UHGV virus genome: UHGV-0224297
Source of the DNA: a virus
Direction: 5' to 3' (one strand)
Length of the DNA: 15,109 bases
The notes under the pieces are model-generated. The model did no database searches, had not been told where the DNA came from, and was given only the letters and a program-made list of their open reading frames with translations. This document shows positions 13 to 8,667 of this stretch, piece after piece. Position 1 is the first letter of the stretch. Each line of letters opens with the position of its first letter. Both the position numbers and the translations under genes were made by a program.

Positions 13-489
13 TTATAGCCCTAAGTGCGTGAGTGATAAAATAGGCTGTGTTTCACCTTTAATCGTCGCGAAGGAACGATACATTTCTGCGTTACTTGAA
101 AAAACTTCGTTAGCAACGATACATTCACCCGTCTCTAAAGAAAGGAGATAAATGTAGTCGCTCCATACGCTTTGTACCAATACCCACTCGAGCGCGGTGT
201 CATTTTCGCGTGTTGTCCGCAGGTGGTGAAAGTAAGGCCGGATTGCGTCAACCGCCGCATTAAAACGGCGATGATAAATTCGGGTTAAATCAAATGTCCA
301 GATTGTTTCCAGGTCAACTGGATGTAATGTGCGTACAGTGTCGATAATCGTCGACTGATCGTTAAGACGTGAGGCTTCGGCGATACGCAGCAGTTTCCAG
401 GCCACCGTTAAGTTGTGGCGAATTTGTTCAGGTTTAGCCGACAGGTCATGATGAAATTGCGCAGCTTGATAGACGTTAGATAATTGCAT
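13..489 (-). CDS. hypothetical protein (158 aa)
   Basis: Complete ORF with ATG at 487-489 and stop at 13-15. RBS CTAAAGGAG (plus 497-505) lies 7 nt upstream on the minus strand. Sits just downstream of the minus-strand terminator at 520-545. No recognisable motif. Confidence 0.7.
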   Translation of the reverse strand: MQLSNVYQAAQFHHDLSAKPEQIRHNLTVAWKLLRIAEASRLNDQSTIIDTVRTLHPVDLETIWTFDLTRIYHRRFNAAVDAIRPYFHHLRTTRENDTALEWVLVQSVWSDYIYLLSLETGECIVANEVFSSNAEMYRSFATIKGETQPILSLTHLGL

Positions 490-557: not shown

Positions 558-947
558 TCAATGATCTAGTTCGATAGCACCAGCCATCTTGCCCCGTTCT
601 TCGATAACGATCAGATAACGGTCGCGAGATTTGCTTTTAGCGAGAGTTAAGACAACAGTAGGGTCGCACGTTTTCGTGGTGATAGGAAGAACCTCTCTTG
701 CAACGGAATCGAGTAGAAAGTAATAACCTGCGGGACACATCGTGCCGCCATCAGCTTTTACCAGAATATAGCGCCCGTCTGCGCCGACTTCTTGGCAGAT
801 TGTTTCACCGACTTCACAAACTTCAAACCCCGGAGGATTGTACTGGTAATCGGTATTGTTGTTTGGGGTTAGCAGTAAATCGTTAACTTGGGTAGATGCT
901 GCTACACCCAGGGAGAAGAAGAATGCTAAAGCGCAGATGAGACGCAT
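558..947 (-). CDS. small predicted secreted protein (129 aa), 4-Cys paralogue A
   Basis: ATG at 945-947 with TAAGGAG RBS 6 nt upstream. N-terminal hydrophobic segment MRLICALAFFFSLGVAAS looks like a Sec signal peptide. Shares a Cys signature with the 958..1368 product. Confidence 0.75.
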   Translation of the reverse strand: MRLICALAFFFSLGVAASTQVNDLLLTPNNNTDYQYNPPGFEVCEVGETICQEVGADGRYILVKADGGTMCPAGYYFLLDSVAREVLPITTKTCDPTVVLTLAKSKSRDRYLIVIEERGKMAGAIELDH

Positions 948-957
948 GAGTTACTCC

Positions 958-1368
958 TTAAATTTTAAGTTTATCCATAGCTACAACGATAGGTTTTTCC
1001 GAAGTGTCTAATATCCCTACCATCGGCACACCATCTACGACTTTGAAGAATGGTTTGTTGTTGCCTGAGCACAAATGTTTGTCGTTGTATTCAAGACGTT
1101 GTGCCTTCCACGTTTCAAGGTTGAGTACAGACATTGGGCTGTCGTAGCACCAGGCACCACCTTGCTCAACGATGAACACGTATCTGCTACCTTTGTATTT
1201 AAACAGGTTCTTCGCCTGGCAGTACAGACCGTCAATTTCCGTACAGTAGAAATCATCGGTGCTATTGACGTACTTAATACCGTCTGGCAACTGTATTGTT
1301 TTTGCTGATACGTTAACAGAGAACAGAATAGCAATTGCAATGAGAAGAGTGTTGATGATAGTTTTCAT
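958..1368 (-). CDS. small predicted secreted protein (136 aa), 4-Cys paralogue B
   Basis: ATG at 1366-1368 with AAGGA-type RBS. Signal-peptide-like N-terminus MKTIINTLLIAIAILFSVNVSA. Its stop overlaps the RBS of the next gene. Shares C-x(6-8)-CQ ... G-x-RY-[IV]-[LF]-[VI]-x-x-GG-x-x-C with the 558..947 product. Confidence 0.75.
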   Translation of the reverse strand: MKTIINTLLIAIAILFSVNVSAKTIQLPDGIKYVNSTDDFYCTEIDGLYCQAKNLFKYKGSRYVFIVEQGGAWCYDSPMSVLNLETWKAQRLEYNDKHLCSGNNKPFFKVVDGVPMVGILDTSEKPIVVAMDKLKI

Positions 1369-1379
1369 GATAAAAGTCC

Positions 1380-1865
1380 TTAGTATTTAGATTGTTCCGC
1401 GTATTTCTTAACCAGGTAAGCGAATTCAGCAACACCGATATCACCGAACCAAATCAGATAACCGGGGTCGATGTTGTAGTAATAACCGACGAGTTTCTTG
1501 GTGTGTGGGTTGTATAGCGTTACGATGTATTCCCAGCCACAAGCATTAGCTTTACAACCACCACTTTCAATCCAGATTTTGTTGTTGATGTTTACCGGAT
1601 ACATGTTACCGCCAGGGCCATCCATGTATCCTTTAGAGCCGAACATACCATCCAGTCCCACCGGGTCTAGTGTTTTATCAACAACGGCTTTAAATGACTT
1701 ATCGGTATCGTACAAGTCGTTGATGTTCGGGCACGCATTTGGCTGACCTTCCCAAGCGTTTCCGTCGCAGGTAAGCAATTCGTCTACGGAGGCCGCATCT
1801 ACAGTTGGTGTGGCACCGATAAACAAGAAAACCAGAAAGAACATCAGTGTATGTAAACGTTTCAT
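1380..1865 (-). CDS. small predicted secreted protein (161 aa)
   Basis: ATG at 1863-1865 with CTAAAGGAG RBS (plus 1874-1882). Signal-peptide-like N-terminus MKRLHTLMFFLVFLFIGATPTVDA. Four Cys in the mature part. Confidence 0.75.
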   Translation of the reverse strand: MKRLHTLMFFLVFLFIGATPTVDAASVDELLTCDGNAWEGQPNACPNINDLYDTDKSFKAVVDKTLDPVGLDGMFGSKGYMDGPGGNMYPVNINNKIWIESGGCKANACGWEYIVTLYNPHTKKLVGYYYNIDPGYLIWFGDIGVAEFAYLVKKYAEQSKY

Positions 1866-1883
1866 TGTAACTACTCCTTTAGA

Positions 1884-2270
1884 TTATTCGGCAGGGCGAT
1901 TTAAAGTAACACGGCCAATTAATTCGGCGTTATGAAAGAAGTCCACAGCGGTATAGTTACCAACTGATAGCGGATGGATACTAACTGACATTACTTTCGG
2001 TTGTTCGCAAGCAATATCGGTTAGACGTTGGTAGACTTGTGCACGGGTGTCAGCAATGAGTAATCCCGTACACGTTTCACCACGCACTAAACGATAAACT
2101 TGCAGTTTACCGAAACTGCGCATTAACGTGGGCGTCTCATCCGGGTTGATAATCGGTGACTCAGGAGCCGGTTCGTAATAGCGGACATCCGAATCACCGA
2201 AAGCATAAGTGCCAGTAATTCCGACCGCACAGAAAATAATGATAGTATAAAGTATAGTTCTGATATTCAT
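1884..2270 (-). CDS. small predicted secreted or membrane-anchored protein (about 128 aa)
   Basis: The ORF track starts at a GTG (2274-2276), but the in-frame ATG at 2268-2270 is the more plausible start. The RBS is weak (GAGTG). N-terminal hydrophobic stretch ILYTIIIFCAVGITGTYA could be a signal peptide or a signal anchor. Start codon choice is uncertain. Confidence 0.65.
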   Translation of the reverse strand: MNIRTILYTIIIFCAVGITGTYAFGDSDVRYYEPAPESPIINPDETPTLMRSFGKLQVYRLVRGETCTGLLIADTRAQVYQRLTDIACEQPKVMSVSIHPLSVGNYTAVDFFHNAELIGRVTLNRPAE

Positions 2271-2298
2271 TTTCACGCACTCTAAAAAAGATTAATAC

Positions 2299-2760
2299 TT
2301 ATTTGTTAGGACGGCTGTGTCCACAGTTCTGGAAAAACGTTTCGTTAAGGCGTTCGCCTTCTACGGTAAACCCTGCTGCCACGTTATCGTTAATAAGTAA
2401 ACTAAAATGTTTTGCCTCACCGACCGCTTTAATGAAATCCGCCCAGGCTTGTTCTGAACGGTCGCTACCGTCGATGGTAGGGATACGGTATTTTTTACCA
2501 TTCACGACAATATCGAGCGCGTTATCCTCAGCGTTTGTTGCCCCTGCAGGTTCTCCGTAATACCAAACATTGTGCCCGTAAAATTTACGATTGGCGGTTT
2601 CTGTACTGCAATTGATAGAGAGGCTGTTGCCTTCAGTGTCTTCGATTTCGTAGATGGCTTGGTCTGGAGACTGGATTTGTTCCCAGCTATTGATTGCTGC
2701 GTGTGCAGTATTGAGGCCCAGCGTTAAGAGGATGGTTAAAAGGGAAGTAAAAAATTTCAT
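2299..2760 (-). CDS. small predicted secreted protein (153 aa)
   Basis: ATG at 2758-2760 with AAAGGAG RBS (plus 2768-2774) 7 nt upstream. Signal-peptide-like N-terminus MKFFTSLLTILLTLGLNTAHA with an AHA-A cleavage-like site. First gene after the terminator and conserved element at 2810-2886. Confidence 0.75.
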   Translation of the reverse strand: MKFFTSLLTILLTLGLNTAHAAINSWEQIQSPDQAIYEIEDTEGNSLSINCSTETANRKFYGHNVWYYGEPAGATNAEDNALDIVVNGKKYRIPTIDGSDRSEQAWADFIKAVGEAKHFSLLINDNVAAGFTVEGERLNETFFQNCGHSRPNK

Positions 2761-2809
2761 TGTTTTGCTCCTTTAAGGCGTTAATGTATAAATGAGTTAA
2801 TCATAACTC

Positions 2810-2836
2810 TCACCTAAGTAATATATATCTGAAATT
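2810..2836. promoter_or_regulatory. conserved element copy 1 (core TAAGTAATATATATCTGAA)
   Basis: The 19-bp core at 2815-2833 is identical to 7179-7197, with similar flanks (TCACY before, WTT after). It lies between the terminator at 2856-2886 and the start of the second minus-strand cassette (2760). Strand of action is unknown. Confidence 0.5.
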
Positions 2837-2855
2837 ATTTTTAATGTTGACGAAC

Positions 2856-2886
2856 AAAAAATAAAAGGTGGGGGTAAACCCCCACC
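2856..2886 (-). terminator. intrinsic terminator (minus strand) ending the upstream cassette
   Basis: Hairpin GGTGGGGG-TAAA-CCCCCACC (2867-2886), followed on the minus strand by UUUUAUUUUUU (plus A-tract 2856-2866). Lies directly after the 2891..3469 stop. No U-tract on the plus-strand side. Confidence 0.8.
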
Positions 2887-2890
2887 GACG

Positions 2891-3469
2891 TTATACATCG
2901 AACCGATACTGCCGGGAGTTAATGAGGAACTCAGTATTCAGCTCAATCCATTCGAGTAATTCCCCCAACGGTAATCGGTTTGGGTTTTCTAACTCGATAG
3001 ATGCAACCGGATAAGAGTTTACTAATTCCGTAATCGCCTCAATCCCCTCTTGCGTTCCATCGTCTTCTAAGGTGATTGTAAACGGCATATCGGTACGTTT
3101 CGCATTAGGATTGTACAAACTGACTTTCGTTGCTTGCACAAACGCAGTCAGGTCGTCTCGCATAATGCGAATATCTGGCGCTAGAACTACCCAGAGATGT
3201 TGCCCTGGCTGGAGTTTACGTTTTGCGTAGTTTACGAAAGGACTTGCCGTCAAGTTCTCTAAACCACAACAGATGTTACGTAAACGAATTCCTCGCGGAT
3301 CTTTGTAATCCACGTCGAAAATCCCCACAGGTTCATTCGCTGCCCGCTTTATCAGAAAGGCTAATACCGTGTCCGCCCTTTCTGGTAAGGAAAGCCCAAC
3401 TCCCTCAAGCTCCCCATCGACGAGATTTTCCAACCAAACGTCTTTTCGCATTTCTATTAATCGGTACAC
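2891..3469 (-). CDS. hypothetical protein (192 aa)
   Basis: ORF with GTG start at 3467-3469 and GAGGTGG RBS 5 nt upstream. The first in-frame ATG, 18 nt downstream, has no RBS. Stop at 2891-2893 is followed by an intrinsic terminator. No recognisable motif. Confidence 0.6.
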   Translation of the reverse strand: MYRLIEMRKDVWLENLVDGELEGVGLSLPERADTVLAFLIKRAANEPVGIFDVDYKDPRGIRLRNICCGLENLTASPFVNYAKRKLQPGQHLWVVLAPDIRIMRDDLTAFVQATKVSLYNPNAKRTDMPFTITLEDDGTQEGIEAITELVNSYPVASIELENPNRLPLGELLEWIELNTEFLINSRQYRFDV

Positions 3470-3481
3470 GGTTCCACCTCA

Positions 3482-4255
3482 CTAATAATTAAGTTTTACA
3501 TCGGCAATAAACAGCAACTGTTTACCGTGTTGCTGCACTTCTTTCCAACCTAGCTTCATAGCAGCGTCAACAACATCTATCATGCTGTAACGAGACATCA
3601 ACGCGGTTGATTTTGTTCCTGACATTAAGTAGAGCGGCTCATTAGGGCAACGGTCGCGAGCATCAGGAAGTTCCCGAGAGACTGCTGATCCTTCGGGTAC
3701 GGTAACAACATGAATCACGGTAAATGGTCTCTTGTGGGTTAAATAGATACGAAACCCAACGTGTTCAGACTCATGAAAGACTTTCTTTACAACCACATCT
3801 TTTAGTGTCGTTTGAACATCAATCCCAGGTAATATCATGGATTCGCGAGAAACGAAACAACGACTATTTTCGACCGTGGAGAAATAATTACGTAACGGTA
3901 AACTGGCGTTATGATCGCGCAGTTTTTTGCTCAGTAGATCGAAGTTCAGTTCTTTAACTTTCTCTAGCCACTCTTTGGCTTGTTGAACGTAATAACTACC
4001 AACGGTGCGATAAGTTAATACCTTACCTGCGCTTACTTTCCAAAGTTTGATGGTTAGTGAGTTTGGCTTATAGCGACGATACTCACCCCGCGTATAGTTG
4101 ATGCGCTCGTAGCGCTCTACATCGTCAATCGGTGCAGATTCGACCGATTGTAACTGCAGCGTACGATCTAATCTATCGGCTAATAGTAGCGATGTTAGCG
4201 GACCTTCGATCATATACGGTTCGGTTTTAAAGATATCGTCTAAATGGACTTTCAT
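3482..4255 (-). CDS. GW-QLLF C-terminal motif family protein (257 aa)
   Basis: ATG at 4253-4255 with AAGGAA RBS. C-terminus LGWKEVQQHGKQLLFIADVKLNY. N-terminus MKVHLDDIF and internal LPGID ... GFRIY are shared with the 6069..6806 product. Confidence 0.75.
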   Translation of the reverse strand: MKVHLDDIFKTEPYMIEGPLTSLLLADRLDRTLQLQSVESAPIDDVERYERINYTRGEYRRYKPNSLTIKLWKVSAGKVLTYRTVGSYYVQQAKEWLEKVKELNFDLLSKKLRDHNASLPLRNYFSTVENSRCFVSRESMILPGIDVQTTLKDVVVKKVFHESEHVGFRIYLTHKRPFTVIHVVTVPEGSAVSRELPDARDRCPNEPLYLMSGTKSTALMSRYSMIDVVDAAMKLGWKEVQQHGKQLLFIADVKLNY

Positions 4256-4322
4256 TTCTATTTCCTTCTTAACAAAAGCCGCGACTAAAGCGCGGCAGTT
4301 AGAGAAAGTATATTTTCACTTA

Positions 4323-5474
4323 TTAAAGGTCAGCAACAAACAGTAGCTGACTGCCATACGGTTCGACAGATTTCCAACCGTAATCTTTACCGATCGTCGT
4401 TAAATGACTGGTAGTTAACTTTTTATCAATCGTCCGCAGATGTATCATTAGCGTATTGGACTCTGCCGCATCAAGTAACATCGCAGGTTCTTTTTCAGTG
4501 CGGTCGTCCGCTTTCGGGAAGAAACTGTAATATTGACTTTTGGGCAGATCGATTGACAACGTATAATTTTTCTTTGTAACGAATAACGCCATCCCTTCGA
4601 AATTGCAATCGAAACGATATTCCCAACCTGCTTCTGCTAAAACGTCTTTTAGCATTTCCATGACTTTAAGCTGATTAACACTAGGCAGTCGGTAAATTGC
4701 AAGACCACTTGGGAAAATGCGTATACCATCGACGACACTATCGGTGGTTTCGTCAATAAGTTCAGGATAACGTTGTGAGAAAATATGATCGCTCTTGCTT
4801 TTCTCTTCAACGTCACGAATGAATTGGGCTAATTCGTCTCTTAAGGCGGACATTTGATTTTCTCCTTTGTCTTCAATAATCAGGTGGGGTTCGCCGCTAA
4901 TTAAAATATGGTAAACGAGGTCGTCGGTAGAACGATAAGTGAGTTTGATAGCTTTATCACTTAACAATTCGTAGCGGAAGAAACTTTCGTACCAACTTAA
5001 GCCGAAATCGTTTTGTGTGAGTTCCTGCTCAACTTTGATGGTTTTTGCTTCAAAGCCGATTAACCCGCTTAATAACGCAAGTTCTGGTTTAGTTAAAATG
5101 GCCATGCCGTGAAAGGGCACTTGTTCAAGCTGAAAACATAAATTACTGACTTTACCACTTGGGAAGACTTTAAACATAATCTTCCGGCTGCTACTCTTTT
5201 CTCTAACAACGAGTTTACGGTAATTTAGTCCACAATTTGAGTAAACCGCGAACTGGTAACCTTCAATTTCTTCATCGTAAGTACAGACATCGACAGGCGC
5301 GATAATCTCATCGTATTCACTAAGTACACAGCAGCCCAAGTTATAACCAAACAACTCGCGTTGTAATGAAGACTCGATGGTTAAGCTTGGCAGAGGCCAA
5401 GTTCGATTATAGCATCTGTCCATCAGTTCTTTTAGGATCTTGGCATGTCCTGGTTTAGAAATAATATTTCGCAT
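4323..5474 (-). CDS. GW-QLLF C-terminal motif family protein (383 aa), with a second degenerate internal copy
   Basis: ATG at 5472-5474 with AAAGGAGAG RBS. C-terminus YGWKSVEPYGSQLLFVADL. A degenerate internal copy reads AEAGWEYRFDCNFEGMALFV. Confidence 0.75.
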   Translation of the reverse strand: MRNIISKPGHAKILKELMDRCYNRTWPLPSLTIESSLQRELFGYNLGCCVLSEYDEIIAPVDVCTYDEEIEGYQFAVYSNCGLNYRKLVVREKSSSRKIMFKVFPSGKVSNLCFQLEQVPFHGMAILTKPELALLSGLIGFEAKTIKVEQELTQNDFGLSWYESFFRYELLSDKAIKLTYRSTDDLVYHILISGEPHLIIEDKGENQMSALRDELAQFIRDVEEKSKSDHIFSQRYPELIDETTDSVVDGIRIFPSGLAIYRLPSVNQLKVMEMLKDVLAEAGWEYRFDCNFEGMALFVTKKNYTLSIDLPKSQYYSFFPKADDRTEKEPAMLLDAAESNTLMIHLRTIDKKLTTSHLTTIGKDYGWKSVEPYGSQLLFVADL

Positions 5475-5503
5475 TTTTACTCTCCTTTAGGGTTTTTCGT
5501 TAC

Positions 5504-6043
5504 TTAAGCAGGGTAAGCTAAGAATAATAACTGCTGGCCGAGTTTACGTACGGTATGCCAGCCGTGCGCTTTTGCTGTTTCTACTAATGTTTCCCAATCG
5601 TCAACGTTGCAACCGTCTTTTTTCAGTTTTGTAAGTAGTGTCTCTGCTTCTTTATCTGTCAGCAATAATCCTGGGTTACTTAACGTACACGTAAGAGGGT
5701 TAGGGAAATACGCGTAGCGTCTTACAAAAGTAAAGTCTACGAGATAGTGTGCTTTCCCCGTGTCTAGAAGCGTAACAACATCCACGCCGCCGTCGTAGGA
5801 CGCGCTCGTCACTTTCCATCCGGTACCGGAAAACAGTTGACTGAATAATTTGGTAAAGATATCCCCGGAACCGCGATAATAAAGCACAGCATCTTCGTTG
5901 ATTTTTTCTATTTCAATACCAGTGATCGTTGTACCCGGTTGGATAACGTTAGACAATATACTGTACGGGCTTTCAAAACGATGTTTACCCACACCCAGGT
6001 TAACAAACTTAATAGCTTGTTGTTTCATTTCGATACTAATCAT
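5504..6043 (-). CDS. GW-QLLF C-terminal motif family protein (179 aa)
   Basis: ATG at 6041-6043 with AAAGGAGAAA RBS. C-terminus AHGWHTVRKLGQQLLFLAYPA. An internal GW is also present (SGTGWKVTSASYDGG). Confidence 0.75.
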   Translation of the reverse strand: MISIEMKQQAIKFVNLGVGKHRFESPYSILSNVIQPGTTITGIEIEKINEDAVLYYRGSGDIFTKLFSQLFSGTGWKVTSASYDGGVDVVTLLDTGKAHYLVDFTFVRRYAYFPNPLTCTLSNPGLLLTDKEAETLLTKLKKDGCNVDDWETLVETAKAHGWHTVRKLGQQLLFLAYPA

Positions 6044-6068
6044 GATATTTTCTCCTTTAGGTTTTTAC

Positions 6069-6806
6069 TTACGCGGTTTTAATTAACAGCAGATAGTCCT
6101 TCGTAAACTCAGCACAACTCCACCCTCTCATCGTGGCGATTTTACGAAGATCAATTTTCTCGTGATATTTCAATAAGGGATCGTCTGAGTTAATCTCAAC
6201 CAGGTGGGTGGCTTTAGAAATCGTTTCCACATCTGGGATCTGTTTTGCTAAGTCGGATGCAATCAGTTCAATAACGCGGTAACCCTTTAACACAGAAACA
6301 TAGATGCGCAAACCATATAGCGTGCCCTCGTCTTCTAATGGACAAAGATCGATGCCGGGTCCAAGCAGTGATAACTCGACGTTATCGGGAAGGTTTTCTG
6401 CATTTCGGAGTAACCCTATCCCATTTCTAAACAGAGGGAAGTAAGAGAATAGTGGTGGTAAAGCCCAACCGTTCCCAATAAGCACATCATCGATACTAGT
6501 AGGCGTGTTCGCAAGAAGACGAATGTGGTCAGCCACAACTTCAAGTTCGGCATCACTGATCAACTTATAGATTAACATGACACTGGTTTCGGTATTAATA
6601 ACGAAGAAGACGCGGTTGGCGTAACTGCCTATCACGTATTCGTCAATCATACAGTCGATAACGTCACTGTCTGGATAATCTTCAGGTTTAATTGTTCCAG
6701 CATCGATTAACTTAGCAGGTTGCGATTGTTTTAATAGTTCGTTAACAACAGTAGAAGAAAGTTCTAAACTGGTGTTAGTAAAGATATCGTCTAATAATTC
6801 TCTCAT
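6069..6806 (-). CDS. GW-QLLF family protein, divergent member (245 aa)
   Basis: ATG at 6804-6806 with a weak RBS; first gene after the divergent control region. C-terminus RGWSCAEFTKDYLLLIKTA is a degenerate form of the motif. N-terminus MRELLDDIF and internal LLGPGID ... GLRIY match the 3482..4255 product. Confidence 0.7.
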   Translation of the reverse strand: MRELLDDIFTNTSLELSSTVVNELLKQSQPAKLIDAGTIKPEDYPDSDVIDCMIDEYVIGSYANRVFFVINTETSVMLIYKLISDAELEVVADHIRLLANTPTSIDDVLIGNGWALPPLFSYFPLFRNGIGLLRNAENLPDNVELSLLGPGIDLCPLEDEGTLYGLRIYVSVLKGYRVIELIASDLAKQIPDVETISKATHLVEINSDDPLLKYHEKIDLRKIATMRGWSCAEFTKDYLLLIKTA

Positions 6807-6901
6807 GATTTACTCGCTAATCTCAATAAAGGGGAGTCTATTATTATGGATTGCAGAAGAGGAATAAGGAAGTCACTACGTTCCTCTGGGAAGAGTATGT
6901 C

Positions 6902-6918
6902 GGTATACTACGTATACC
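6902..6918. promoter_or_regulatory. inverted repeat GGTATAC-TAC-GTATACC (7-3-7), candidate operator
   Basis: Perfect 7-bp arms with a 3-bp spacer. A third GTATAC lies at 6935-6940 and a GGTATCC at 6963-6969. A TATAAATA (T4 late-promoter-like) reads on the minus strand at 6924-6931. Confidence 0.35.
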
Positions 6919-7107
6919 TCCGCTATTTATATCCGTATACATAATGCCCCCTACCCCCTACCGGTATCCCGAGTAGCAGAATAAAGGGGCAGACTGTAAA
7001 ATTTTAGTACCTGTTATCGGAAGGTACTAAATGGAGTGTAGTCTTTAAGCCGTTTGAGCAGCTCATTGAGACTTTCTTTTTTAGTAGACATGATCTGTCA
7101 CCCCAAA

Positions 7108-7116
7108 TGGTATAAT
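7108..7116 (+). promoter_or_regulatory. candidate sigma70 extended -10 box (TGGTATAAT)
   Basis: Exact TGnTATAAT at 7108-7116 on the plus strand. No good -35 (TAGACA at 7085-7090 is 20 bp away). Would start transcription near 7123, toward the 7225 gene. Confidence 0.4.
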
Positions 7117-7143
7117 CAATCCGTTTCGAATGAAACGTGTCCG

Positions 7144-7172
7144 TAGGGACTGAAGTGCCAGTTCAGTCCCTA
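7144..7172. other. strong stem-loop (11-bp stem, 7-nt loop)
   Basis: TAGGGACTGAA-GTGCCAG-TTCAGTCCCTA. No U-tract on either side, so it is not a canonical terminator. Lies immediately adjacent to element copy 2. Confidence 0.55.
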
Positions 7173-7173
7173 T

Positions 7174-7199
7174 TCACTTAAGTAATATATATCTGAATT
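7174..7199. promoter_or_regulatory. conserved element copy 2 (core TAAGTAATATATATCTGAA)
   Basis: The 19-bp core at 7179-7197 is identical to copy 1. It sits 28 nt upstream of the ATG at 7225, next to the 7144-7172 hairpin, in the divergent control region. Confidence 0.5.
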
Positions 7200-7224
7200 C
7201 AATTCCGATCTAAGGAACGTCCCG

Positions 7225-8190
7225 ATGGAGAAATCCAGTGTTGATTTTTTCTCAATTGGTATCGTCGCGGAAGACAAACCCCGTGGTACAGATCGGGTAA
7301 AAGTGATACCAATTGAAACCAACTTTGCTAACCCTACCGTGGTGCAATCTGTTTCTTCAGCAACTGAAAAGACGCATGAAACATCTGGTGCAACAGATAA
7401 CCTAACCATTAAGACGGGTAACACGATAACAGCAAAGTGGTGGAAGTTTAACTCCAACCGAATTAATTCCCCTGACGTTAAACGAGAAGATTACGTTATC
7501 TTGTTACGTTTGGGGAAAACCGATATTTATTTTTGGATTGATCTGAACTTCGCTAACGTTAAGCGATTAGAGGATGCGGTTTATGCGTGGTCTGCTGATT
7601 CTGAAAACCAGATGGCGGATGACCTGTCCAATGCGTATGTGTTGAATATCTCGACGATTGACAAACATATCACGCTAAGAACAAGTATGGTGAACGGTGA
7701 GAAAGCGGCGTGGTTGTTTCAGTTTGATAATGCAAACGGTACGTGGCAGTGTGTTGACCATAAAGGAAACAAGTATTACATTAACTCGGTTGAAGATGAT
7801 CTCGGGTTTGAGAATGCGATGCTTTCAAAAGTGAACATCAACAAAGAAGATGCGTTCATTTATTCAAAGCGTTCTATTAACCTGGAAACGAAAACAATTA
7901 ATGAAAAATGCGAAGTTCGCAATACGGAAGCAGCGAAATCCGTTACGTTTAAAACGCAAACCTGGTTAACGGAAGCAGGGAGTTCGACAACATTTAAAAC
8001 GCCGAACTTTAAACAAGAAGGGAATGAAGCGATGTTCACCGGTAATCTGGAAATCGCTAAGAACTTCAAATACGGTGGTACGGGCAAAGGCGTCGGTGTC
8101 TTTACGGTTAAAGATGCCGTTATTTCTGGTATTACCTTTAGCGTTCACATTCACCAAGGTAAACATGGCCCGACATCACCTCCGCAATAA
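7225..8190 (+). CDS. putative baseplate central spike protein (321 aa; function tentative)
   Basis: ATG at 7225-7227 with AAGGA RBS (7212-7216). The N-terminal region (GIVAEDKPRGTDRVKV ... KWWKF ... DYVILLRLG) resembles, from memory, the OB-fold of P2 gpV-type spike proteins. The C-terminus VHIHQGKHGPTSPPQ resembles the His-rich metal-binding tip of such spikes. The coding call is firm; the functional call is not. Confidence 0.65.
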   Translation: MEKSSVDFFSIGIVAEDKPRGTDRVKVIPIETNFANPTVVQSVSSATEKTHETSGATDNLTIKTGNTITAKWWKFNSNRINSPDVKREDYVILLRLGKTDIYFWIDLNFANVKRLEDAVYAWSADSENQMADDLSNAYVLNISTIDKHITLRTSMVNGEKAAWLFQFDNANGTWQCVDHKGNKYYINSVEDDLGFENAMLSKVNINKEDAFIYSKRSINLETKTINEKCEVRNTEAAKSVTFKTQTWLTEAGSSTTFKTPNFKQEGNEAMFTGNLEIAKNFKYGGTGKGVGVFTVKDAVISGITFSVHIHQGKHGPTSPPQ

Positions 8191-8308
8191 TTCCCCTTTT
8201 TCTTACGTTGTTTTTATATATTGTGACCTGACGTTGGTAAAACTTTTTATCAACACTTTTCTTAAACCCATCGTTTAGTTAAGCAGGCCACTTTTTTCGC
8301 GCACTCTA

Positions 8309-8340
8309 CTCCTCCCTACGGGGAGGAGCTATCTTATGCT
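8309..8340 (+). terminator. GC-rich stem-loop; weak terminator or 5'-leader structure
   Basis: 8-bp stem CTCCTCCC / GGGAGGAG with a UACG tetraloop (8309-8328). Followed by a moderately U-rich CUAUCUUAUGCUU. Lies 120 nt after the 7225..8190 stop and 70 nt before the DUF1471 start. Confidence 0.35.
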
Positions 8341-8396
8341 TCGGTTGTAACACACGTCGGTCTTAGACCACTAACCTTTTGAAATGGAGAGCTGTT

Positions 8397-8606
8397 ATGT
8401 CTATTAAAGAGTTCTCTTCTGCTGAGCATATTCCAGAAGAGTTTAAGAAAATCGGTAACGTCAGCGCTTTCGGCGATACCGTTGATCATGTAACTGGTAA
8501 ACTGGCTGCTGAAGCCGAAAAAATTGGCGGCGACGCATTCAAAGTTATCGGTATTTCCGGCAACAACAAACTGCACGGTAACGCGATTGTCTACAAAAAA
8601 GACTAA
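8397..8606 (+). CDS. DUF1471 (YdgH/BhsA/McbA-like) domain protein without signal peptide (69 aa)
   Basis: ATG at 8397-8399 with GGAGA RBS (8386-8390). The track start at 8379 is a TTG and an in-frame stop lies at 8364-8366, so no N-terminal extension is possible. The C-terminal FKVIGISGNNKLHGNAIVYKKD resembles enterobacterial BhsA-type proteins as I recall them (ending ...TLHGTAVIYK). No hydrophobic N-terminal segment. Confidence 0.65.
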   Translation: MSIKEFSSAEHIPEEFKKIGNVSAFGDTVDHVTGKLAAEAEKIGGDAFKVIGISGNNKLHGNAIVYKKD

Positions 8607-8609
8607 GCG

Positions 8610-8667
8610 AAAAAAAAAACGTGCTACTCCTACCCTCTTAGAGGGTAGGAGGTTACTTTATTTTTTT
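8610..8667. terminator. bidirectional intrinsic terminator between convergent genes
   Basis: Perfect 11-bp stem CTCCTACCCTC-TTA-GAGGGTAGGAG (8627-8651). Flanked by an A10 run (8610-8619) on one side and a T-rich run (8652-8667) on the other. Sits between the DUF1471 stop (8606) and the minus-strand gene stop (8658). Confidence 0.8.

Follow-up and report, generated by a model that had tools for sequence, protein, structure and literature searches.

A perfectly repeated 19-bp element occurs twice in the analysed stretch of DNA (15,109 nt, hereafter the window), and with a probability of about 85% both copies are minus-strand early promoters that belong to a jumbo phage of the phiKZ-like type (Chimalliviridae), with the injected virion RNA polymerase (vRNAP) as the enzyme that most likely recognises them. 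The sequence match to published early promoters, the number of copies and their orientation were observed directly. The recognition by vRNAP, the early timing and the exact start site we infer from the homology of the motif to those of phiKZ and 201phi2-1. The 19-mer TAAGTAATATATATCTGAA is present exactly at 2815-2833 (copy 1) and 7179-7197 (copy 2) in plus-strand coordinates, and no third site was found within the 15,109-nt window when up to 3 mismatches were allowed. Two matches appeared in none of 200 dinucleotide shuffles, so the repeat is far beyond chance. The likeness of the two copies extends over 31 nt with 87% identity (2810-2840 vs. 7174-7204) and ends there. Thus, the initial annotation was right to describe identical 19-bp cores with similar flanks. 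The same annotation had held that its reading would fall if the two copies lay inside a larger recent duplication; such a duplication is ruled out, since the sequences farther out do not align.

On the minus strand the element reads TTTCAGATATATATTACTTARGTGA, and the longer readings are AATAATTTCAGATATATATTACTTAGGTGAGAG for copy 1 and TTGAATTCAGATATATATTACTTAAGTGAATAG for copy 2. The core of copy 1, TTTCAGATATATATTACTTAGGTG, occupies 2811..2834 (minus strand), contains the exact 19-mer and fits the published phiKZ-like early promoter consensus, with the TATATTAC octamer at 2825..2818. It is preceded by an A/T-rich upstream element, ACATTAAAAATAA, at 2835..2851 (minus strand), the counterpart of the regions conserved at -20/-30 in phiKZ-type early promoters; the upstream consensus gATTAAAAAtAATTTC is present in most related instances. 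The core of copy 2, ATTCAGATATATATTACTTAAGTG, lies at 7175..7198 (minus strand), also with the exact 19-mer, and has its octamer at 7189..7182; the syntenic site is kept in relatives. TTTCAGA and ATTAAAAATAA, which represent the -20 and -30 elements, are found upstream of copy 1 and of most related instances, and upstream of copy 2 TTCAGA is kept and the -30 region is poorer. Transcription is predicted to start at about G2811 or A2810 for copy 1, as judged from the mapping in 201phi2-1 and phiKZ, and at about G7175 or A7174 for copy 2 (both minus strand). This placement relies on the position of the core about 10 bp upstream of the start in the mapped phages and on the published MEME motif (-50 to +1), which ends at GTG, and the predicted sites are uncertain by about 2 nt. 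In a promoter of this type, A/T-rich sequence around -30 would be followed by TTTCAGA near -20 and by the near-invariant TATATATTAC near -10; five further bases then lead to GTGA, the predicted start.

The minus-strand sequence of copy 1 given above fits the published early-promoter consensi, and the near-invariant AT-rich core is found in both copies. The consensus reported for the Klebsiella phage N1M2 is TTTCARRYAKATATTATYWAAGTGWA, tabulated as TBYAWWWWWTTTCARRYAKATATTATYWAAGTGWA (PMC7058600). The same source gives a consensus of the same motif type for OBP (…TTTYARRYAKATATTATYWWADTG), that of 201phi2-1 (…TTTRARR_BTATATTACDWHDGTG) and that of phiKZ (TATATTAC) (PMC7058600). The long consensus of 201phi2-1, OBP and N1M2 matches the element almost position for position, the terminal GTG included (PMC7058600, Table 2; PMC11512511), although these phages differ in host range and clade from the enterobacterial SPN3US-like phage considered here. 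The strong sites of this clade use TATATTAC, as do 201phi2-1 and phiKZ, and a weaker second class, seen in SPN3US, has the OBP-like ATATTAT. 

The comparison with phiKZ itself reveals an identical TATATTAC core and the same arrangement of TTTxAGA, 2 nt, TATATTAC, 5 nt and TG. In both cases the sites are multicopy and intergenic, have an A/T-rich sequence upstream and are co-oriented with operons of small genes of unknown function. The first 50 kb of phiKZ contain seven TATATTAC sites with the layout TTTaAgA-NN-TATATTAC-N5-TG, all of them facing downstream genes. One of these sites lies upstream of the nuclear-shell gene PHIKZ054, to which dRNA-seq of phiKZ has assigned an early promoter. The flanks in the present clade are, however, far more fixed than in phiKZ, with TTTCAGATA before the core and YTARGTGA after it, and there are about 6-12 copies per genome in this clade vs. 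32 in phiKZ.

Every jumbo phage that encodes its own RNA polymerase has, in front of its early operons, a highly conserved AT-rich motif that spans about 10 nt around position -10, and the motif was confirmed as an early promoter wherever transcripts were profiled (PMC7598289). In phiKZ, dRNA-seq detected the motif at 32 start sites. The early promoters of phiKZ and 201phi2-1 are conserved at -10, -20 and -30, and ONT-cappable-seq of 201phi2-1 places the motif about 10 bp upstream of the start site (PMC11512511). Early transcription in phiKZ and AR9 needs neither the host polymerase nor new protein synthesis, and for this reason it is attributed to the injected virion polymerase. Altogether, the promoter family has been validated experimentally in phiKZ, AR9 and 201phi2-1, where primary 5′ ends are found about 6-10 nt downstream of the core and early transcription is insensitive to rifampicin and independent of new protein synthesis. 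Ceyssens in 2014 reportedly dealt with the early promoters of phiKZ and their use by the virion RNA polymerase. The early promoters of phiKZ and its virion polymerase were also addressed by Wicke (2021) and Putzeys (2024).

The origin of the window agrees with this assignment. Its only alignments are with jumbo phages of the SPN3US, phiEaH2 and Asesino type, which share about 72-75% identity with it over 8.4-10.6 kb; judged by its sequence, it belongs to an uncultured SPN3US/phiEaH2-like jumbo phage (phiKZ-like, Chimalliviridae). Parts of the uncultured IMG/VR contig 3300045988_113438 (220.8 kb) are 96-98% identical to the window, and the contig 3300029126_000001 (225 kb) is about 83-93% identical to it. 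No polymerase gene is located inside the 15-kb window; both contigs encode a homologue, 76% identical, of SPN3US gp241. The latter protein was found in virions and is the beta-N subunit of the multisubunit RNA polymerase packaged there (PMC5105663). Within the window, the plus-strand genes to the right of 7225 are structural and encode a baseplate assembly protein, a BhsA/YdgH-like small protein and a 1440-aa virion protein. The minus-strand genes to the left of 7092 encode small proteins with no known function assigned. An Rfam search of the window with E values up to 1 gave no match.

The element turned out to be widespread among related phages. The complete genome of SPN3US has 12 sites, 6 strong (TCAGATATATATTACYTAGGTGA) and 6 variant (e.g., TCAGATAGATATTATCTA.GTGA). 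All 12 are intergenic, all 12 lie on the strand of the next gene, and they precede its start codon by about 50-160 nt. Both copies in the window are likewise intergenic and share the strand of the operon downstream. The 22-mer TCAGATATATATTACYTARGTG gave 48 matches in 46 IMG/VR stretches, mostly contigs of 100-246 kb, with the copies co-oriented within each contig and with 6 exact copies in the nearest relative of the window. Among 47 unique contexts, a Shine-Dalgarno sequence and a start codon follow downstream, mostly at 43-63 nt. A 36-nt query matched 126 cultured-phage records at 465 places; nearly all the records listed represent genomes that measure 200-306 kb and usually have 4-7 such places, and the hosts include Erwinia, Salmonella, Pseudomonas, Klebsiella, Serratia, Cronobacter and others. 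These matches almost always fall where the annotation shows no feature. Both the intergenic position of the sites and their restriction to jumbo-phage records are direct observations, and no match to the 22-mer was found in bacterial and archaeal genomes (185,579 species genomes, 596 Gb). A looser pattern, AGATATATATTACNTANGTG, was discarded: it also matches a coding region (…EDIYYVGE…) of numerous small marine viral contigs that have nothing to do with the element. The IMG/VR scan was repeated with the 22-mer in its place. A distant BLAST search of the conserved leader block against cultured phages returned nothing.

Individual sites can be followed between phages. Positions 2804-2845 of the window (42 bp) recur with 100% identity at one phiEaH2 site, while the two phages are only about 75% identical in their best-conserved genes; this phiEaH2 site, the counterpart of copy 1, carries no annotation. 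The site syntenic to copy 2 is exact in the relative L005 and has one substitution in the relative L008. SPN3US has no recognisable site at the position syntenic to copy 2, and individual copies are therefore dispensable.

The genes and terminators around the two copies suggest an operon picture for the minus-strand half of the window. The terminator scan called minus-strand terminators at 4296-4278, 2886-2867 and 547-527. The second of them, GGTGGGGG-TTTA-CCCCCACC followed by TTTTATTTTT (2867..2886; fold -17.7 kcal/mol, z = -3.3), is the intrinsic terminator of the upstream operon and lies about 30 nt before copy 1. Copy 1 lies 51 nt upstream of ATG 2760 on the minus strand, which would give a 5′ UTR of about 51 nt, and the first gene after it (2299..2773, minus strand) has a Shine-Dalgarno sequence AAGGAG at 2773..2768 and encodes 153 aa from this ATG, for which neither Pfam nor PHROG has a family. 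Copy 2 precedes ATG 7091 by about 84 nt on the minus strand. The first ORF after it in the ORF list is a 25-aa micro-ORF, MSTKKESLNELLKRLKDYTPFSTFR (7014..7091, minus strand), and a similar 25-aa ORF is found at the same place in the relatives L173, L174 and L175. A hairpin at 7003..7031 (minus strand; fold -10.3 kcal/mol, z = -4.6) is positioned directly 3′ of the micro-ORF. We infer that copy 2 would open an operon that runs leftward from 7175 through the micro-ORF, a long leader and the genes 6806..2891, with an internal terminator at 4296-4278 and its end at the terminator 2886-2867. Right after the latter, copy 1 would re-initiate transcription and drive 2760..558; the terminator 547-527 and then the ORF 489..13 would lie beyond this unit. 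The sequence TGGTATAAT at 7109-7117 (plus strand) looks like an extended -10 element; it is mutated in a 98%-identical relative and was treated as a chance occurrence.

The alternatives to an early promoter on the minus strand concern the strand, the polymerase and the very nature of the element. Read in the plus direction, copy 2 stops 27 nt short of ATG 7225, and the initial annotation compared its position before the 'spike' gene to that of a late promoter. Under such a reading, a polymerase other than that of the virion would use the element as a late or middle promoter for the baseplate gene. The product of this gene is indeed a structural baseplate assembly protein, probably late, and the late promoters of these phages are poorly defined (PMC7598289), which makes an overlap conceivable. 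However, copy 1 read on the plus strand would point at the stop-codon end of a minus-strand gene, there is no plus-strand gene for it to drive, and the phiKZ late motif TATG (PMC7598289) is absent from 7092-7224 of the plus strand. The orientation of the published consensus corresponds to the minus strand here, all 12 SPN3US sites are aimed at a downstream gene on their own strand, and the Shine-Dalgarno sequences and start codons of the 47 contexts are placed in the minus-strand sense at their mostly narrow distance. A late promoter for gene 7225 seems therefore highly improbable, and the proposal does not survive, since the family is co-oriented with the downstream gene. The other proposal of the annotation, one shared promoter type in front of two minus-strand cassettes, is supported by the same consensus orientation and the SPN3US sites. 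A degenerate third TATATAT box had also been proposed. The string exists, at 8215-8221, and it is no member of the family, having more than 8 mismatches in 25 positions to the extended consensus; a hairpin separates it from the BhsA-like gene.

A host sigma-70 promoter with an AT-rich -10 box such as TATATT, used early by the bacterial polymerase, appears equally improbable. The core does hold TATATT- and TATTAC-like hexamers, and most phages transcribe their early genes with the host polymerase (PMC4496689). Nevertheless, a sigma-70 scan gives no call at the two elements, whichever strand is read, and there is no TTGACA-like -35 hexamer at a spacing of 16-18 nt. The block of 22-24 nt is near-unchanged across phages that are about 72-75% identical in their best-conserved region, and it is absent from all bacterial genomes scanned. 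Moreover, phiKZ development is rifampicin-resistant, and the early genes with the motif are transcribed without the host RNA polymerase. The initial annotation noted that the conservation is tighter than between typical sigma-70 promoters, which proved correct and reflects a phage-specific polymerase. It is also very unlikely, if slightly less so, that the element is primarily a site for protein binding or recombination (an operator, a homing or recombination hotspot, a packaging or replication signal) and not a promoter. A highly conserved repeat would fit such a site as well, and the indels that adjoin both copies in L008 recall the shuffling mediated by PeSLs, the early-promoter stem-loops of T4-like phages. 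Yet inspection of the sequence revealed no dyad symmetry in the element. Its co-orientation, the constant distance to the Shine-Dalgarno sequence and start codon and the placement after terminators are properties of a promoter, and in phiKZ and 201phi2-1 mapped transcription start sites fall at the homologous motif. If repeated promoters recombine, this would be a side effect and not an alternative function.

Both copies are accompanied by a hairpin, as the initial annotation had pointed out, and the hairpins are present at the positions it gave. The hairpin of copy 1, GAGUUA-UGAU-UAACUC (2794..2809, minus strand), is located at the predicted 5′ end and folds with -6.0 kcal/mol (z = -1.9). That of copy 2 (7144..7172, minus strand) has an 11-bp stem, UAGGGACUGAA/UUCAGUCCCUA, and a 7-nt loop, folds with -16.4 kcal/mol (z = -3.7) and is kept in L173, L174 and L175 with compensatory changes. 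Each transcript would thus begin with a stem-loop. We examined 32 independent promoter instances, clustered on the 35 nt downstream. A perfect stem of at least 6 bp within 8 nt of GTG occurs in 18 of the 32, as compared to 15% of shuffled sequences and 6-9% of the control segments taken at these loci, so the stem-loop beside each copy is a recurrent feature and not a coincidence. The mean folding-energy z-score of the promoter-proximal hairpins is -1.9 for these 32 instances. Of the 23 instances whose fold reaches -4 kcal/mol or lower, 21 have their first paired base at most 2 nt from the final G of GTG. The stems themselves differ (GAGAGTTAA/TTAACTCTC, GAGATTAC/GTAATCTC, GAGCATTGA/TCAATGCTT, GATAGA/TCTATC and the stem of copy 2), and at stem positions 4-7 three to five different Watson-Crick pair types are used, i.e., the sequence is variable and co-varying. 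About a third of the instances have no clear hairpin. While most copies in this clade have a hairpin downstream, at the predicted 5′ end, such hairpins are not consistent at the seven sites in the first 50 kb of phiKZ, and we therefore do not claim the hairpin for the whole family. The OBP/N1M2-type pattern gave only 5 loci, which is too few for a hairpin test in that clade.

Stabilising stem-loops at the 5′ terminus are known from mRNAs of bacteria and phages, such as the leaders of ompA and T7 phi10. The hairpins described here resemble such leaders, by analogy only, in that a stem-loop of variable sequence and conserved position lies a few nt from the 5′ end. Our leading interpretation is that a 5′-terminal RNA stem-loop may protect the early mRNAs from 5′-end-dependent decay. 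It is unlikely that the hairpins instead serve as leader attenuators or act on the DNA in promoter recognition, where they would be extruded like the hairpin of phage N4. What would suit a role in the DNA is that their start varies by no more than about 2 nt relative to the conserved motif, that the sense strand folds only slightly better than the antisense strand (p = 0.04) and that the N4 virion RNA polymerase needs a promoter hairpin (PMC4496689). N4 promoters are also early, are used by an injected virion-borne polymerase and have an inverted repeat beside a conserved sequence (PMC4496689). However, the N4 polymerase is a single-subunit enzyme and recognises the hairpin itself, a GC-rich structure that has its centre at -11, ahead of the start, as well as a 3-nt loop and conserved bases (PMC4496689). 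The hairpins of the present clade are located downstream of the motif, at or after the predicted +1, with loops of 3-9 nt or longer and with stems that vary, so that an N4-type hairpin promoter was rejected. The instances with no hairpin indicate that it is not obligatory for promoter identity. An intrinsic terminator or leader attenuator was rejected as well, since a T-run (at least 5 T in 8 nt) comes after just 2 of the 23 hairpins.

The initial annotation also compared the arrangement of promoter and stem-loop with the mobile cassettes of T4-type phages. PeSLs are composite cassettes of terminator and early promoter in T4-like phages and serve as recombination points (PMC2839356, PMC4122927). 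Like the element described here, they are short, highly conserved, repeated regulatory cassettes between small genes, and copy 1, with the terminator 2886-2867 followed by the promoter, shares their layout. Copy 2 does not: it has no upstream terminator and lies in a divergent intergenic region. Furthermore, PeSLs contain early promoters of the host sigma-70 type and their stem-loop is the upstream terminator, whereas here the promoter is specific to a phage polymerase and the recurrent stem-loop is downstream of it. In L008, an extra 123-aa ORF with its own hairpin and leader is inserted between copy 1 and the homologue of the 2760 gene, and a deletion immediately past the hairpin of copy 2 removes about 100 nt together with the micro-ORF. 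Such indel junctions adjoin both promoters in L008 only; the other relatives are collinear across the promoters. The likeness to T4-type cassettes is only partial and concerns the layout of copy 1 and perhaps the indels of L008. Membership among the PeSLs is rejected, as the promoter is not of the sigma-70 type used by the host and the phage resembles phiKZ and not T4. The resemblance is one of layout and perhaps of evolutionary behaviour.

The element belongs to a promoter family that has already been described; the new data extend this family and leave its current understanding unchanged. What goes beyond the literature consulted is only the recurrent hairpin and a possible cassette behaviour. 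The minus-strand half of the window can now be annotated as two early transcription units of an uncultured jumbo phage, with predicted starts and terminators, and a sharply defined promoter consensus of 22-24 nt is available for the SPN3US/phiEaH2 clade. According to a study of AR9 from 2017, no phiKZ-related virion RNA polymerase had been purified by then, and a strong, well-defined and clearly oriented promoter is a useful template for in vitro work on the virion polymerase. The recurrent hairpin at the predicted 5′ end provides a testable hypothesis on how the first mRNAs are handled. A broader proposal, which we put forward tentatively and consider doubtful rather than probable, is that in the SPN3US-like clade the early promoter forms part of a conserved module in which the hairpin is required. 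In that proposal, the module would consist of a terminator, the promoter, a 5′-terminal hairpin and a leader with a Shine-Dalgarno site, and such modules would double as recombination points of early genes, as a counterpart of PeSLs in jumbo phages. If this is true, the hairpin would serve, for example, to protect or direct the earliest mRNAs transcribed from the injected genome, and the repeated modules would let small early-gene cassettes be gained and lost.

In the predicted 5' hairpin of promoter copy 2 (7144-7172), the 7-nt loop at 7155-7161 reads GTGCCAG on the plus strand of the window but CTGGTAC, in inverted form, in L005, a 98%-identical relative. A second relative, L008, carries the L005 type at the equivalent position. 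The 11-bp stem is unaltered despite the loop inversion, and the difference looks like a flip inside a perfect inverted repeat.

Larger changes in L008 also lie at the two predicted early promoters. Immediately downstream of promoter copy 1, this relative carries an additional ORF of 123 aa (L008 9576..9947), inserted at L008 9527-9980 relative to window 2774-2805; the hairpin and leader of this ORF resemble another promoter cassette from the same genome (L002). Immediately past the copy 2 hairpin, L008 lacks about 100 nt (L008 about 5284-5286 vs. window 7035-7133). The junctions of both the insertion and the deletion adjoin the promoters. The deletion removes a minus-strand micro-ORF of 25 aa (MSTKKESLNELLKRLKDYTPFSTFR, 7014-7091), the first reading frame downstream of promoter copy 2, and in L005 a 1-nt homopolymer difference shifts this frame. 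A 25-aa ORF of similar sequence (e.g., MSTEKKSGLDEVIELFKRYNPAIPR) occupies the matching position in three other relatives, L173, L174, and L175.

TGGTATAAT, a perfect extended -10-like string at 7109-7117 on the plus strand, is oriented toward the baseplate assembly gene. In L005 it is altered to TGGTTTAAT, and its occurrence is therefore probably due to chance. Among the matches listed, AGATATATATTACGTAGGTG in the IMG/VR loci L029-L106 belongs to a conserved coding region (…YTEDPNFEDIYYVGEVK…) and not to a promoter; these contigs are small, unrelated viral ones, many of them marine. Motif scans performed without the TC prefix collect such AGATATATATTACGTAGGTG coding false positives.

Within the predicted minus-strand early operon, an exact 16-mer, TAAAGATATCGTCTAA, is common to the 5' ends of ORFs 3482..4255 (at 4228-4243) and 6069..6806 (at 6779-6794), where it is translated as …LDDIF… in both. 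The C-termini of ORFs 3482..4255 and 4323..5474 alike match phrog_26772. The common 16-mer and the joint phrog_26772 match suggest a small paralogous family within the operon.

On the plus strand, the baseplate assembly gene contains two copies of a 34-nt repeat (7924-7957 and 7969-8002; 76% identical, spaced 45 nt), giving a repeated peptide, …TEAAKSVTFKTQ… / …TEAGSSTTFKTP…. The same structural-gene region includes a plus-strand YdgH/BhsA-like (DUF1471) gene of 75 aa (8379-8606), which is also present in SPN3US and its relatives. Strong hairpins at 8309-8328 and 8627-8651 flank the gene, and the whole unit (8309-8651) resembles a self-contained moron.

The window shares with five related IMG/VR contigs a near-identical non-coding block on the minus strand (…CCCTTTATTCTGCTACTCGGGATACCGGTAGGGGGTAGGGGGCATTATGTATACGGATATAAATAGCGGAGGTATACGTAGTATACCGACATACTCTTCCCAGAGGAACGTAGTGACTTCC…, about 6865-6995), roughly 130 nt long; the coding DNA on either side of it is far more diverged in these contigs. 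Six jumbo-phage contigs each contain a single copy of the 25-nt core of this block; one of them is SPN3US, which retains only part of the block. Neither Rfam nor a distant BLAST against cultured phages gave a match. Folding yields a z-score of -2.05, and the hairpin of the block shows a compensatory change in SPN3US (GGTATCC/GGATACC vs. GGTATAC/GTATACC). The block is possibly a leader RNA element or a different type of promoter.
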